Shown here: one piece after another, positions 50,801 through 59,800 of the stretch
Numbering within the stretch: the stretch's first letter is position 1
How the letters are laid out: each line of letters begins with the position of its first letter
From: Kiritimatiellia bacterium
GTDB lineage: Bacteria > Verrucomicrobiota > Kiritimatiellia > RFP12 > JBMNHG01
Length of the DNA stretch: 64,000 nt
Reading direction: 5' to 3'
Assembly (NCBI GenBank): GCA_050950285.1
Contig: JBMNHG010000002.1
Location: forward strand, 124,001 to 188,000
Position numbers: made by a program

Positions 50801-53800
50801 GCCGTGCCCGTGGCGACGAGGATCAGCGGCGCGCGCGCAAGGGTCAGCCACGTGACGATCCGCCGCTTCCGGGCGAGTTTTTCGTGGGATGGATTCTCCT
50901 GGGACATGGTTCTTTCGTGGGAGGGGTTAGCGGGCGCCGTACTGCCGGGCCTTCGGAAGCATGGATTCGACTTCGCGGCGCAGGATCTCGATGCGGGGAT
51001 CGACGGCGGGATCGGGGGCTTCCACGGCGTCCTGTGAATTTGCGGAATCGACGACGGGATGAGCCTTCTTCCACGCCTTGTACTTCTTGTCGATCTCCTT
51101 GATCTTCCGCTCAAGCACCTGCTGCTCGTGCTGCATGGAACGCAGCTGGTCGGCGGCTTTCATGCGCTTGGCTCCCGTGGAATTGTCCCGTTCGGCGACC
51201 AGGGCTTCGACCTTCGCCTCGAACTCCTGCTGCGTCCGATAGAGGGCGCGGTATTCTTCGGCGTAGGGGTTCGCGTCGATGGCGGCGCGTTCGGCGGCGG
51301 TCAAGGTCGGCTTCTTCCCGTTTCGTGACGCGGCTTCGGCCCGTGATTCGGCCTCGAGGGCGGCGAGCCGTCCTTTGAGCGTGTAGAAGCGGCGCAGGAA
51401 ATCGACATCGTCGGCCGCGACGTCCCCGCGCGTGCCGGGAACGCGGAAGAGGTCGGTCAAGCGCACGCTCACGGGGGAGATCCATTGGCCATCGTCCCAG
51501 ACGGCGCCGACGGCGGAGGCATCGTCGCCCTCGCCTGCCGTGGAGATTTCCTCGAAGAGCGTCCCGGCGGAAATCGTGTTCCGGCGTCCGCCCTGGAGCA
51601 GCACTTCGGCATCGCGCACGGCGATGCCCCAGGCGGAGACGGCGGCGCCGGAGGCGGGGATGCGATCGGTGGAAGCCACCGGGGCATCCGGGGCGGGAGC
51701 GGCTTCCTGGGCGGGCGCCGTCTGCTCCGGGGCAGGGGCGGGAGTTTCGCGAGGTCCATCCGCCGCATTCCCGCAGTCGCCCGCGCCGGCGGCGGCGGGG
51801 AGACGCCTCGGGATCGTAGGCACGGACGGCAACGACGGGGGTTCGGGGGGCGTTGCACGGACAGACGCAACCTCGCGCGGAAGATCCGCCGTCTGGGGAA
51901 GGAACGGCTTCACGAAAGGCGCCCCGAAATAGACGAGCGCGGACAGCAGTATCGCCGCCAGAAGATAAGAGACCAGGAAACGCATGGTGGAAGCGGGGGA
52001 AAAAGCAGAGGACCGGAGGACTGCGGTGAAACCAAAAAGGGCGCGGAAGGCCACGCCCGGGGATTGCGCTACTCCTGGGCGGGAGCCGGCTCCGCATCCG
52101 GAGCGTCCGTCCCGACCGTTTCCGCTTCCGCTTCCACGTCCCCGGACGGAACGTCCAACTCCGTCGCTGGCGCTTCCACGTCCGCCGGTGCTTCCACGTC
52201 CCCGGCCGGAACCTCGTCTATCTCGACCTCCGGCACTTCCAGCACGTCCACGTCCTCGGCCGGGACATCCGTCCCGACCTCCGGGGCATCGGAGGTGGAA
52301 AGGGCTTCAAGACCCGCGAAGATATCGCCGGCCGAAGCGGCGGCCGCCTTCAGGCCATCGAAGCGTGCGATCTTCGCCTTGCGGTCTGCGATGTAGGGCT
52401 CCCAGCGTGTTCCCTTCTGCTCTTCCGCGAGGGTTGCCATGCGCGCGAGGGCGGCCGTCTTGTCGCCGGCGAGGGCGAGGCAGCGCGCGACGCCAATGGC
52501 GGCTTCGACCGCGAAGGGGCTTCCCGGGTTGTCCTGGAGGAAGGCCTCGTAGGCGGCCTTCGCCTCGTCGAACTTGCCCTGGGCTTCGAAGGTCTGGGCC
52601 TTGCCGAGACGGGCGATCACGCCGGTGTCGGAAGACTGCCTGGCGAGCGTTTCGTAGATTTCGAGCGCCCTGCCGTAGGTGCCGTCGCGGAAATAGGCCA
52701 TGGCAAGCTTCAGCTTCAAGGCGTCGCCCACCGCGGTGGAACCGTACTGGGCGACGGCGTCTTCCAGTTCCTGCACCGACATGGCCTCGACGAGCGCGGT
52801 GGAGGCGGACTGGGCCTTGGAGGCATAGTTGCGGTAGAAGATGATGCCGAAGGCCACGGCGATCACGACCAGGCTGACGACCATGAGGACGTGCCTGCCA
52901 TACTTCCGCCACCACTCGATGACGGGAAGGAGTTCCGGCGGCATGTTGTCGGGGAGGTTCCTTCCGCGCTCGGCTTCGGGGATGTTCGGGGCGGGCTTGG
53001 CATTGCTCATAAGAAACTCGCTTTCCAGGAAAAGGTGTTCCGGCATCATATCGTGCCCATGCCTTCCGTTGCAAACTCTTTTGCACGGTTTGCGCGATCG
53101 CGGGGCGCACGCGACCTCCCGGCCCTCGGGCGCACCTGCCCGTGCCAGCAACCGGACACCGCGCCGCCATCGCGGACGAACGCGGTTTCGGGAAGCGCCC
53201 TCAATAGGGGTCCATGAGGGAGTTGTCGTCGGGGCCGATCCATCCGAGGCGGGCGCGCACGTATCGTTTGGCGGGGAGGTTTTCCATCTTCACGGCGCCC
53301 ACGTGGCCGTCGCACCAGACAACGTTCGCGTGGTTGCGGTGGCGGAAGTGGACCGTTGGCTCCGACACGGCGGACGATTCCGTACCCGGCGCGAAGACCC
53401 AGTGGTAGGGTTCGATGAAGGAATATTCGATGAGCGAATCCCTGCCCTTCTTCCCGCCCGGCCTGAGGTAGGCGGCGTCGGCGAACATGGCGGTGTTGGC
53501 GGGGTCGGCAATCCCGTCGAAGGGCATTCCTTCCACAAACGCCGGGCCGGTCATCCCGTCGAGATACAGGCGGGATCCGACGCCCACCAGGTTGTATCCG
53601 TAGCCGCCGCACCCGAGCTCGAAGTTGTCGCCGGGCGCGAGGTGGTCGTTGTGGAACCGGCACGACGGGCACATGCGGATTCCCTTGGCGTCCAGGTAGT
53701 CCGCCAGGGGCCCAAGCTCTCCGACGAAGGGTTTCCGCAGGCTTTCGCGGTATCCGTGCCACCGCTCCAGATCCCTGCCCGACCAGGACGTCGAGGCGGC

Positions 53801-56800: not shown

Positions 56801-59800
56801 ACGACAGAAGAGCACCGATTACGGCGCAACGGAAAACGATCGATTTCATGATTCCCCTTTCGCCATCAGTTTCCAGAGACCCAGGCGTTCACGGTGTCGA
56901 CATCGACGCCGGCGGCGGCAAGCCGACCACGGAAACGCGCGCGGAAACGACGCGCGTCGTCCGCGTCGAAGCCTTCGTCATGGAGGTCGTTGTCGATGCG
57001 CTCCATGAGGTCCATCGCCTCGGCGAAGGTCTCTTCCCCGGTGGCTTTCACGGCGGAAAGCGGCGCGCCGTTTTCCGCAGGCTGCGCCTCGGCGGAGGTG
57101 TCGGGGGAATCGGGGGCGGGGGCGGCGGGCTGCCGGGCGCATCCCGCCTGGAGAAGGGCCGCGGCAAGAAGCGCGAACCCAAGCGTGCAGTAGTTCATGT
57201 GGACCTTTCCAGGCCCCATCCCAGCAAGGAGCGGAAGGTCGGCATGCAGGCCGTCCACGGGCATCGTACTGCCTGGATGCATGGCGCTGCCGATTCCGTC
57301 CCCGCATTCGCGTGGGGCCGTGAATCCGACGCCTGGCTCGTCTTCTGGCTTTGCCTTCGCCAGCCGGCCTTCCCGCCGCCTTTCGGCAACAGTGGCATCG
57401 TGGCTGGGGGGATCCCGCACTCGCGGGCATGGCTTACAGCGGCGCGACCGCGTCCGAATCTCACGGACTTCCGTACACGCAGGCATCGATGACGGCGCCC
57501 ACCGTAGGGCATCCCCGCCCCAAAGTCCAGCGCAAACATCTCGCCCTTTCCGGACACGGCCGGATCTGGTACAGTGGCCGACATCATGATGAACCCCGTT
57601 TCCTTTTCCTGGCCGGAGGGAAAATCCGGCGCCCTGACCACCAGCTGGGACGATGGCACATGCCACGACCGCAGGCTCGTGGACATCCTGAACCGCAATG
57701 GCCTGAAGGCGACCTGGAACCTCAACGCCCGGCGCATGCTCGCGGAACCCGCCGAAACGGTCGTGCAGGCAGACGAAGCCCGCTCGCTCTACGCAGGCCA
57801 TGAAATCGCCTGCCACGCCTATTCGCACCCGCACCTCGAGGAGATCCCCGAAGAGGCCGTGAAGGCCGAGATGATCGCCGACCGCCGCCACCTCGAGGCC
57901 ATCGCCGGATACCCCGTGCGCGGCATGGCGCTTCCCTACGGCTCCTACGACGCCCGCGTCGTCCGGCTGCTGCGCGAGTGCGGAATCCTCCACAGCCGCA
58001 CCACCGCCGCCCACGACCGCTTCGGCCTGCCGGGCGACTTCCTGGAGTGGCATCCCACCTGCCACCATCGCGCCGACCTCGCCGGCCTCTGGACGAAATT
58101 CGTCGAAAACCGCTCGCCCACGAAGCTCTTCTACCTGTGGGGCCACAGCTACGAGTTCCCGCGCGACGACAACTGGGAAACGATCGAGGAGTTCGCCGCG
58201 ACCGCAGGGGCCGCCGCCGACATCTGGAAGGCCACGAACATGGAGGTGGCGCTCTACGTCGCCGCCTGGCGCCAGCTCTGGTGCTCGCTCGATCTCACCT
58301 CCGTCTACAACCCCTCCGCAACGACGGTCTGGTTCCACGCAAACGGGAAACTCCGCTCCTGCGCCGCCGGCGAAACCCTGCCGCTGCCGGACTGATCGCT
58401 CCCCTCCCCCATCGACAGGACACCTCCCATGAAAATCTTGATGGCCGGCGACATCGTCGGCTCGCCCGGACGCAACGCGTTCAAGATCGTCGTGCAGCGC
58501 CTTCGCGCCGCCGGCGAAATCCACGCCGTGGTCGCCAACGCCGAGAACTGCGCCGCCGGAAGCGGCATCACCGCCGATCTCGCGGAGGAGCTTTTCGCCG
58601 CCGGCGCCGACGTGCTCACCCTCGGAGACCACACCTGGAACCAAAAGGGCCTCGATGCCTTCATCGCCCGGGAGAGGCGCCTCCTCCGCCCCGCGAACTT
58701 CTCCCCCGCATGCCCCGGACGCGGCATCGTCACCGTGCAGACGCCCGTCGGGCCGCTCGCCGTGATGAACCTGATCGGGCGCGTCTTCATGGCCAACCCC
58801 GCCGAATGCCCCTTCGCCGCCGCCGACTGCCGCGCTGAAGGCCCTTCCCGCCGGTTCGCCCGTGCTCGTGGACTTCCACGCCGAGGCCACCTCCGAGAAG
58901 ATCGCGATGGGCCGCTACCTCGATGGACGCGTCGCCGCCGTGGCCGGCACCCATACCCACGTCCAGACCAGCGACGACCGCATCCTCCCCGGCGGCACCG
59001 CCTATCTCACCGACCTCGGGATGACCGGCCCCGTCGATTCCGTGATCGGTCGCGCCATCGAGCCCGTCCTCAAGAAATTCACCACCGGAATGCCCGCGAA
59101 ATTCAATGTCGCCTCCGGCCCCGCCGCCCTCGAGGGAATCATCGTCGAGGTCGACCGCCACACCTGCCGCGCCACCGCCCTCCGCCGGGTGCGCGAATTC
59201 GCCTGACCCACCCCCACACACCCAACCCAACCCAACCCAACCCGGACACGCCATGGATTCCGCACTCGCATCCCGCATCGACGCGCGCCTGCGCTTCGTC
59301 TACGGTCCCCGAAACCGCCGCATCCCTCCTGCCGCGCGTCCTCGCGCTGTGGCCGAACGCTGGAAGCCCCGCATCGCCCCGCGCCGCGTCGGGTGGGATG
59401 CCTCGGACGCCCTCCTCATCACCTACGGCGACTCCATCCTGCCGGCCGGGGGGGTCGGGCGCCACGCCGCTCGCCGCGCTCCGCGACTTCCTCGATTCAC
59501 GCGTGGGCGACCTCCTGTCCTTCGTCCACCTCCTCCCCTTCTACCCCTACACGTCGGACGACGGCTTCGCCGTGGAGGACTTCCGCCGCGTCCGCCCCGA
59601 CCTCGGAGGGTGGGACGACATCGCCGCCCTCGCCGAACGCCGCCGCGTGGTCTTCGACGGCGTCGTCAACCACGTCTCCGCCTCCTCCGCCTACCTCAAG
59701 GGGTATCTCGCGGGCGACCCCCGCTACGCGGACTTCTTCATCGACCTGCCGCCCGACACCGACACCCGCTCGGTCCTCCGCACGCGGAATTCTCCCCCTC

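Follow-up and report, generated by a model that had tools for sequence, protein, structure and literature searches.

How might vitamin B12 cross the outer membrane of a bacterium that appears to need it, keeps a cobalamin riboswitch and encodes no TonB-dependent receptor (TBDR)? The question is raised by a locus of Kiritimatiellia bacterium GCA_050950285.1 (12 contigs, completeness 99.35%), analysed here in a 64,000-nt stretch of contig JBMNHG010000002.1, the window, whose position 1 is contig position 124,001 and to which all coordinates refer. To our knowledge, BtuB is the only established B12 route across the outer membrane. Many complete or near-complete genomes, nevertheless, have B12 switches and BtuFCD without a TBDR, and one clade of pilin-like proteins, represented at this locus by g172, fills the gap. 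We conclude that g172 very probably has a role in B12 uptake, and we give a probability of about 0.5 to the reading that it is a B12-dedicated minor pilin standing in for BtuB by way of a retractile filament and a secretin.

The riboswitch and the genes behind it

The cobalamin riboswitch aptamer (RF00174; 57318..57517, minus strand) was matched over the full model with 54.2 bits (gathering cut-off 31.5; E 1e-10). It is the sole RF00174 match genome-wide, RF01689 had no match in the genome and our own switch profiles found no second site, which upholds the first-pass annotation of this aptamer as the only cobalamin riboswitch of the genome. The leader between the aptamer and the first start codon (57199..57317, minus strand) is predicted to fold into a long G+C hairpin whose end lies immediately ahead of the ribosome-binding site, with a fold z of -2.06 and equal stability in 5 of 200 shuffles. 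No terminator-like site was found in this leader, and the hairpin is likely to be the expression platform.

The genes that had been listed behind the switch, namely a lipoprotein (g174), a 944-aa protein with two DUF4465 domains (g173) and an N_methyl/DUF1559 protein (g172), do follow it on the same strand, with gaps of only 16 nt between g174 and g173 and 10 nt between g173 and g172. The annotated run had extended to g170; however, g171 (TPR) and g170, at 53010-50927, and the CDP-alcohol transferase have homologues in none of the 80 related loci, and we rejected them as module members. A weak promoter-like site precedes g171 (1 found vs 0.5 expected). The predicted lipoprotein g174 (110 aa; 56866..57198, minus strand) has a signal peptide ending in Cys and belongs to no family, with no Pfam match; its relatives in five other loci each stand directly before a multi-domain DUF4465 gene, and we regard it as an optional accessory of the module. 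Its best Atlas score was 0.84, a lead only.

The secreted, predicted B12 binder g173 (944 aa; 54015..56849, minus strand) was resolved by Pfam, profile and model into a signal peptide (read from the sequence), two DUF4465 domains, a BtuH-like domain, a small beta domain and a C-terminal domain whose last strand reads F-Y-x-I-x-V. PF14717 covers two stretches of it (311 bits). The first DUF4465 (BtuJ-type) domain (56127..56651, minus strand; E 2e-47) keeps the NTPxY loop (residue 231) and the NTTY helix (134) and matches structures 9QPM, 9FCT and 9HMU (E 1e-17 to 9e-17), and the second (55464..55994, minus strand; E 3e-46) keeps NTPAYF (residue 452) and NTTY (354). Both are thus above the Pfam cut-off with the NTPxY loop and the helix tyrosine, motifs whose meaning is taken from the accessible text of PMC13398666, where B12 binding is shown for eight DUF4465/BtuJ members, including Verrucomicrobia and Planctomycetes proteins.

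The earlier two-domain view of g173 proved incomplete, as residues 479-722 (54684..55415, minus strand) form a third, BtuH-like domain. Its profile (A2) had a single match, 8BLW_B (BtuG1) residues 373-474 (E 0.002), and its model (pLDDT 90) had the same chain as its best and only Foldseek match at E<0.001 (E 1e-4, prob 1.0, TM 0.48). The profile and the model thus point to a distant likeness to the H domain of BtuG1/BtuH2. Homologues occur in 66 of the 80 DUF4465 loci, and the alignment contains invariant acidic residues. As B12 binding has been demonstrated for BtuJ and BtuH, g173 would be expected from these families to bind B12 through three domains. Its C-terminal strand pattern is shared by 21 long proteins of the genome, which points to a general export route.

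A pilin-like protein with its own clade

The product of g172 (267 aa; 53201..54004, minus strand) had been described as an N_methyl plus SBP_bac_10 protein with an H-x9-DG motif, and both Pfam scores (N_methyl 29.9 bits; SBP_bac_10, PF07596, 32.8 bits, spanning residues 36-85 only) are above cut-off. It scores 13.7 bits against TIGR04294 (cut-off 19), and H222-x9-D232-G233 is present in the sequence, with D232 and G233 nearly or fully invariant in the alignment. It has a class III signal peptide, with G/A at -1, F1, E5 and a long helix, and is predicted to be cleaved between A and FTLVE. Across the pilin clade, E5 is kept in 51 of 51 sequences and G or A at -1 in as many. A kept E5 and cleavage site are what is expected of a polymerising pilin subunit.

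The model of g172 (pLDDT 92, pTM 0.88) suggests a type IV pilin fold over its whole length. VIA-align placed only pilins or pseudopilins at ranks 1-25, the best being PilA4 (Z 5.8, a range that the tool calls common; rmsd 3.3; 123 aligned; residues 10-265), and no solute-binding protein was among the listed structural matches. Foldseek against the PDB gave no match at E<0.001.

Two clade-specific motifs, one aromatic and one basic, set these proteins apart: GGYGYN occurs in 70 of 84 pilin-clade sequences and HFRH in 79 of 84, versus none of 24 controls in either case. A FastTree phylogeny joined 112 of 125 pilins in one group (support 0.91) that includes one of the 24 control sequences, while 13 pilins from this genome's own order group apart; we therefore do not claim strict monophyly for the B12-linked clade. 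Its members are mostly single-copy within Kiritimatiellia. At one locus (L037) a membrane anchor links a BtuH-like domain to the pilin in a single protein; the best 148 representatives include 17 long proteins, and 8 of these have such a fusion.

A genome without TonB-dependent receptors

That this genome has no TBDR, as had been reported, was borne out by every search made: PF07715, PF00593, a profile of class TBDRs and alignment A3 all gave no match, and tblastn returned only 73-75-aa scraps (E 0.004-0.07). The only congener (G607) has none either. The single TonB_2 gene noted before could not be confirmed, as our own TonB profile had no match in the genome. A Plug match is present in 353 of the 401 genomes of the class, which makes a genome without a TBDR an exception there.

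The gene content is that of an organism that needs B12 and does not make it, with a corrinoid protein, four B12-binding radical SAM proteins and CobS, and no CbiD found in the genome. Putative B12 importers, a BtuF-like (176 bits) and a BtuC-like gene (298 bits), lie elsewhere in the genome, in line with the earlier remark that such partners are outside the operon, and neither is under a switch. Pilus-type parts comprise six secretins, two of which match the Amuc_1098 model below its cut-off, seven PilB/GspE-like proteins, three PilT above cut-off and one prepilin peptidase. We also considered the exbB-exbD pair upstream of btuF (contig C4) as a left-over BtuB energiser and rejected it, as it follows a long protein and has no TonB match.

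Pilin and receptor exchange places

The order of switch, DUF4465 gene and pilin-like gene was said to recur across the class, and it does. Among 80 related DUF4465 loci, 55 have a pilin without a TBDR (14 families) and 19 a TBDR without a pilin (2 families); one has both and five neither, three of these five ending at a contig edge. In the 19 loci the TBDR occupies the same slot as the pilin, and the binders carry the same C-terminal tags. The two TBDR families have no pilin genome-wide (0/9 and 0/7). This confinement to two families means that the exchange may rest on few events.

A B12 switch accompanies the pilin at 53 of 56 loci, and a switch heads a TBDR in only three of these 56 genomes. 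Some TBDR is kept in 52 of 61 carriers within the class; full-length matches to switch-controlled TBDRs were found in 5 of the 61, versus 6 of 6 controls. Four genomes (G004, G058, G112, G051) combine a switch-controlled TBDR with the pilin module, and G029 has a BtuB-like gene. The 15 weaker-matching carrier TBDR loci scanned had no Rfam switch within 1.5 kb, and hidden AdoCbl-II switches before carrier TBDRs were rejected, as the single sub-cut-off match in the 61 carriers heads a pilin operon instead. In the congener, a 69%-identical pilin stands behind a 1162-aa F5/8-type-C protein without a switch, and the switch, g174 and the DUF4465 gene are on a 2-kb contig broken off in the BtuH domain.

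Picking loci by pilin score alone led to the same association. Of 60 further loci so chosen, 38 have a switch, 52 a B12-type marker or chelatase cassette and none a TBDR; eight lack any marker. In 22 of them the switch directly precedes the pilin with no binder gene between, and in 13 of these btuF/C come next, which argues for a B12 role of the pilin independent of a binder. By comparison, no B12 switch was found at 28 other DUF1559 loci. Outside the class, 26 of 36 carriers have no Plug match, including three single-contig genomes, two of which have the order switch-pilin-btuFCD.

Proposed mechanism and competing explanations

The direct observations from which our reading starts are co-regulation, gene order, the near mutual exclusion of the pilin and BtuB-like genes, the modelled pilin fold, the presence of the machines and a need for B12 without its synthesis. 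At low cobalamin, the switch would open, and exported g173 would catch corrinoids with its three domains. Once cleaved by prepilin peptidase, g172 would join a short type IV filament, built by one of the genome's PilB/GspE-PilT-secretin machines, as its minor B12-specific subunit, take B12 from g173 or from solution and carry it into the periplasm upon retraction through the secretin. Import would be completed by BtuF and BtuC, whose genes directly follow the pilin gene in many relatives and lie elsewhere in this genome. The first-pass annotation had proposed a surface binder that hands B12 to a pseudopilin instead of BtuB; the part of the pilin, which replaces btuB in gene order and genome content, is supported, whereas the hand-over is not essential to the pairing, as the 22 loci without a binder indicate. 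No secretin, ATPase or major pilin is among the recurrent neighbours, so that no machine is tied to the module, and PilT does not discriminate, being present in 30 of 30 genomes tested, including four BtuB-type controls.

The strongest competitor, which we consider rather unlikely, is that g172, of pilin ancestry, stays anchored in the inner membrane as a binder or shuttle that traps B12 in the periplasm and loads BtuF. B12 would then enter by way of a secretin, a wide porin or some barrel that went unrecognised, with no filament stroke. This would explain the switch-pilin-btuFCD order (13 loci), a module without a co-encoded machine, the PEP-CTERM-anchored binders and the binder-pilin fusions, and co-existence with BtuB in five genomes; moreover, according to the accessible part of PMC2754498, DUF1559 had at first been interpreted as a family of solute-binding proteins. 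The shuttle leaves unexplained, however, why the pilin is absent wherever a TBDR follows DUF4465 (19/19), and the invariant E5 and cleavage site are those of a polymerising subunit.

It is also improbable, in our view, that g172 acts as a pseudopilin dedicated to the upstream binders as its substrates, exporting or displaying them without touching B12 itself. In most class loci the pilin is indeed closely linked to a secreted protein, and in the congener it stays behind one, although a different one; in what PMC8567305 makes accessible, genes for signal-peptide proteins are frequent neighbours of DUF1559 genes. Nevertheless, 22 loci have no binder between switch and pilin, binders of the same kind and with identical C-terminal tags do without a pilin in the 19 TBDR loci, the C-terminal pattern of g173 in 21 long proteins points to a general export route, and display alone moves no B12 across the membrane of TBDR-free genomes.

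Least compelling among the functional explanations, and very improbable, is that the module merely concentrates B12 for a BtuB encoded elsewhere, which was lost here or lies in an assembly gap. The frequency of TBDRs in the class would fit, as would the closest full locus (L042 of G004), with its switch-controlled TBDR immediately upstream; against it are the five negative searches in this genome, the TBDR-free congener, the lack of a TBDR in 26 of 36 carriers outside the class, including single-contig genomes, and the 0/15 switches at weaker-matching TBDR loci. That one of many DUF1559 genes landed behind the switch by chance is scarcely credible: some relatives hold 30-91 PF07596 matches and the congener's copy has moved, but this genome has only three H-x9-DG prepilins among 21 prepilin-motif frames and one switch, and the recurrence of one clade behind switches across many families and classes, versus 0/28 control loci, refutes it as far as sequence can go.

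Comparison with known systems and possible generality

In the accessible text of PMC13616437 and PMC8941943, the Bacteroides thetaiotaomicron relay comprises BtuJ, BtuH, BtuG, BtuB and BtuFCD under B12 riboswitches. Our genome shares the cobalamin switch, the BtuJ-type and BtuH-type domains and BtuF/BtuC; beta-propeller PEP-CTERM proteins are a further likeness in some related loci. In contrast, it has no BtuB or other TBDR, it carries its binding domains on a single secreted chain that is not a lipoprotein, and a pilin takes the btuB slot. The DUF4465 neighbours named in the available part of PMC13398666 are TBDR, plug, ABC and propeller genes, with no pilin such as is found here.

DUF1559/SBP_bac_10/H-X9-DG proteins of PVC bacteria are described, in the parts of PMC8567305, PMC10632474 and PMC2754498 accessible to us, as having N_methyl and SBP_bac_10 domains with CP and H-x9-DG motifs, and no function is assigned to them there. 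g172 shares the two domains, the CP and H-x9-DG motifs and the adjoining secreted-protein genes; its clade differs in being mostly single-copy in the class, in its own motifs and in its link to B12. The earlier claim of a first function for DUF1559 holds against the literature searched, for this one clade only, given the 0/28 at other DUF1559 loci. No paper joining a cobalamin riboswitch with a prepilin, or B12 with DUF1559 or a pilin, was found in a search that covered few subscription papers and no supplements.

Two other pilus-related systems are instructive. The Sulfolobus bindosome consists of nutrient-binding proteins with prepilin signals, which a pilus machine is believed to assemble (PMC3387779, accessible part); those are ABC-type sugar-binding proteins in cells with no outer membrane, whereas here a vitamin and an outer membrane are involved and, behind the class III signal peptide, g172 has a head that resembles pilins and not an ABC-type solute-binding fold. 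In Akkermansia, of the same phylum, the MUL2 pilus genes are needed for nutrient import, and in the accessible text of PMC13174399 and PMC12418764 this concerns glycan polymers and core pilus genes, with no riboswitch and no DUF1559 named, unlike the present case.

In VIA-align, Neisseria ComP (5HZ7) matched the g172 model with Z 4.8 (rmsd 3.6, 98 aligned). As a minor pilin of DNA uptake, ComP determines which ligand a retractile filament recognises; its ligand is DNA, and that proposed for g172 is B12. We know of no minor pilin receptor with a small-molecule ligand, and pilin-driven vitamin import, if true, would be a new transport class.

Somewhat less probable than our reading of g172 is a wider scheme, in which PVC bacteria would use DUF1559 pilins, each specific to a ligand and exchangeable on a retractile filament, to bring scarce nutrients across the outer membrane in place of TBDRs. 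The B12 clade would be the first for which a ligand can be assigned. One of its branches, found before hmuSTUV-like genes (5 loci), might be a heme or corrinoid-scavenging version, and the other DUF1559 genes (tens to hundreds) of TBDR-free genomes might be the equivalent of a TBDR repertoire. Such a scheme would offer an answer to large-solute uptake in TBDR-poor PVC bacteria. It would also name a ligand for an extensive orphan family, of which a PVC genome has dozens to a hundred copies. As separate observations, a pattern scan of genome contigs found a single locus, and the Atlas contains clusters from Planctomycetota and Armatimonadota that we note as leads only.

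The cobalamin riboswitch operon and the genome that carries it

The first-pass annotation described a single cobalamin riboswitch heading an operon, and this was borne out: the switch, on the minus strand of the window (57517-57318), is the only match genome-wide. It is followed by g174 (110 aa, lipoprotein-like), g173 (944 aa, two DUF4465 domains) and g172 (267 aa, N_methyl and SBP_bac_10), with intergenic gaps of 16 and 10 nt. The proposed continuation to g170 did not hold, since homologues of the next genes (a TPR protein, g170 and a CDP-alcohol transferase) were found in none of 80 related loci, and we therefore rejected all three as members of the module. 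The claim that the genome lacks any TonB-dependent receptor (TBDR) was confirmed, with none found by Pfam Plug, Pfam barrel, our own profile, tblastn or alignment A3 in an assembly that is 99.35% complete and comprises 12 contigs.

The organism looks like a B12 user relying on salvage, because it encodes a corrinoid protein, four B12-binding radical SAM proteins and two homocysteine methyltransferase domains, as well as CobS, and no CbiD was found in its genome. It has one BtuF-like and one BtuC-like gene, 6 secretins, 7 PilB/GspE-like ATPases, 3 PilT genes above the cut-off and a prepilin peptidase. The six secretins coincide with the absence of a TBDR. L246 (G000:C8:275000-294000), L247 and L248 are clusters in which GspD-like secretins and GspE-like ATPases stand together with large pilins and PilT.

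A pilin in the genomic position of BtuB-like genes

DUF4465 is present in 88 of 401 genomes of the class, and we fetched the loci of 80 of the 87 relatives, the omitted 7 being among the weakest or partial matches. In 55 loci (14 families), a pilin of the g172 clade is present without a TBDR; in 19 (2 families), a TBDR lies directly behind DUF4465, often with exbBD-tonB-btuFCD, and the pilin is absent. One locus has both and five have neither, three of those at contig ends. The pilin was found genome-wide in 0/9 and 0/7 genomes of the two TBDR families, and because the TBDR type amounts to two families, kinship limits the statistical weight of this swap.

The switch accompanies the arrangement: Rfam found it in all 11 DUF4465 loci tested, and our own profiles, trained on Rfam matches and giving no signal in shuffled loci, in 75 of 80. 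When 80 whole genomes were searched with RF00174, most pilin carriers had one match, at the pilin operon, and a switch headed a TBDR in 3 of 56 pilin-carrying genomes (G004, G058 and G112). A profile made from 20 switch-controlled TBDRs matched at full length in 6/6 control genomes, of which 2 had contributed to the training set, and in 5/61 carriers, of which 3 had; of the other carriers, 9 gave no match and 47 partial matches only (E>=5e-29). In L119, L120, L121 and L122, from a BtuB-type family, the remaining cobalamin switches precede metE-like genes (Pfam checked for L121), and in L113:1061-3199 (G204) a match of 67.6 bits stands directly before TolB-like and probable Pal genes.

We consider it highly probable (about 0.9) that the pilin takes part in B12 uptake. 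Of the earlier proposal that it replaces BtuB, the regulatory element, the co-regulation, the gene order, the domain content, the BtuB-like swap and, in the model, a pilin-like fold class are directly supported, and filament transport would be a further step. The module would operate as the Btu relay of Bacteroides does, except at the BtuB step, which is exchanged, and it does not belong to the BtuB-TonB systems. In the literature searched, mainly open-access texts without supplements, we found no paper that brings a cobalamin riboswitch and a prepilin together, nor an assigned function for DUF1559 in the accessible parts of three sources (PMC8567305, PMC10632474, PMC2754498). The observation is real and, on what is shown, this variant of B12 uptake is new.

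The probable B12 binder, the pilin and a possible mechanism

Both DUF4465 domains of g173 match BtuJ1, BtuJ2 and a Coraliomargarita structure, and both retain the NTPxY loop and helix tyrosine, which are the B12 contacts of this family in the available sections of a report that demonstrates binding for eight members (PMC13398666). We read a third domain (residues 479-722; present in 66 of 80 related loci) as BtuH-like, because its profile matches BtuG1 only (8BLW_B, E 0.002), which includes the BtuH B12-binding domain according to the accessible parts of PMC13616437 and PMC8941943; its model (pLDDT 90) again has 8BLW_B as best structural match (E 1e-4). The C-terminal strand pattern of g173 is common to 21 long proteins of this genome, and its relatives end in either the same pattern or PEP-CTERM. 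Judging from domain likeness and C-terminus, the most likely role of g173 is that of an exported protein with three B12-binding domains. The strand itself (F-F/Y-R/K-V/I; window 54015-54440 and 20 other genes, mostly for secreted-looking proteins) has no Pfam match, alternates with PEP-CTERM in relatives, and is a candidate export or sorting tag.

In g172 and 50 aligned relatives, W82, G84, C112, G134, Y135, N138, H219, F220, R221, G233 and G254 are invariant, and E5 is retained in 51/51, position -1 being G in 40 and A in 11. The model (pLDDT 92) shows a helix of 52 residues plus a beta head; among 48,161 chains, ranks 1-25 are all pilins or pseudopilins, with a modest best Z of 5.8, and Foldseek gave no match at E<0.001. 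GGYGYN and HFRH occur in 70/84 and 79/84 high-scoring clade members, respectively, versus 0/24 other DUF1559 proteins for each. A tree of 149 sequences places 112 of 125 pilin members, plus one control sequence, in one group (0.91), and 13 members from the order of this genome in a separate group. At E<=1e-30, 848 cluster representatives match the pilin; among the best 148, a BtuH-profile match precedes the pilin in 8 of 17 proteins of at least 380 aa. In L037, a BtuH-like domain, a PEP-CTERM anchor and a prepilin share a single frame.

DNA uptake pili are a functional precedent for pilin-linked uptake. Further precedents, from the accessible parts of the sources, are the Sulfolobus bindosome (PMC3387779) and Akkermansia MUL2 (PMC13174399, PMC12418764). 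In the proposed mechanism, B12 would repress the module through the switch, g173 would be exported, and g172 may bind B12 and be assembled into a filament that would then retract through a secretin, with B12 handed over to BtuF. We give this filament route an even chance; PilT occurs in 30/30 genomes tested, BtuB-type included, so its presence allows the route but does not argue for it, and no recurrent machine gene was found beside the module. If it holds, it would be a new transport class. That g172 is instead a periplasmic B12 binder is a tentative and rather unlikely alternative, and a role as export adaptor is more doubtful still.

Pilin loci beyond DUF4465 and carriers without receptors

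Of 301 genomes of the phylum, 113 match the pilin profile, and we chose 60 loci by score only (14 inside the class; outside it, 26 with high and 20 with lower scores). Rfam found switches in 12/14, 6/26 and 5/20, respectively, and our own profiles, whose training included most of those matches, in 14/14, 16/26 and 8/20. A switch, BtuH/DUF4465, btuF/C-like genes or a chelatase cassette was present in 52 of the 60 and no such B12-type marker in 8, and none of the fetched stretches held a TBDR. In the order of this genome, the pilin was matched in 26/151 genomes, with a switch in 13/17 fetched loci.

A module that feeds a BtuB encoded elsewhere is improbable. BtuB-like genes do occur in five pilin carriers, four of them with a switch, so the two routes can co-exist, but 26 of 36 carriers outside the class have no Plug match, and assembly gaps cannot account for this in three single-contig genomes, of which G512 and G552 have btuFCD after switch and pilin and G584 has the switch and the pilin. 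Mere chance proximity of switch and pilin can be set aside almost entirely: in 22 of the 60 loci the switch lies at most 450 nt from the pilin with no binder between, btuF/C being next in 13, versus no switch within 1.5 kb in 28 other DUF1559 loci (30 picked by PF07596, of which 2 proved to be clade members).

In five loci, secreted proteins with no or faint BtuJ/BtuH likeness lie between switch and pilin (L163:4862-5941, L164:3741-4871, L208:4891-5901, L295:3756-5633 and L297:4051-5997), and these are candidates for new B12-binding families. In five others of the lower-scoring, wider clade (L195, L196, L198, L204 and L212, covered for 3 kb downstream of the pilin) the pilin comes first, followed in order by a membrane protein, MotA/ExbB and DUF2149, and lastly a CobN-type chelatase. 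They resemble hmuSTUV, but without hmuY-hmuR in the covered stretch; in Bacteroides, hmuSTUV stands behind the hemophore HmuY and the TBDR HmuR (PMC12583661, accessible part). Two genomes with such loci, G405 and G552, have no Plug match.

The only congener, G607, has no Plug match either. A contig of 2 kb carries its switch, g174 and DUF4465 gene and stops within the BtuH domain. Its closest pilin (69%) follows a secreted 1162-aa protein that bears four F5/8 type C domains, in a locus (L245:3483-7780) lacking a B12 switch, possibly a re-use for another ligand. Back in the window, positions 58429-60981 hold what we take, from translation, to be phosphoesterase-like and glycoside-phosphorylase-like genes, both seemingly broken across several frames, which suggests frameshifts or assembly indels, and 8787-8872 and 22998-23071 correspond to a Group II intron domain V/VI match and a tRNA.
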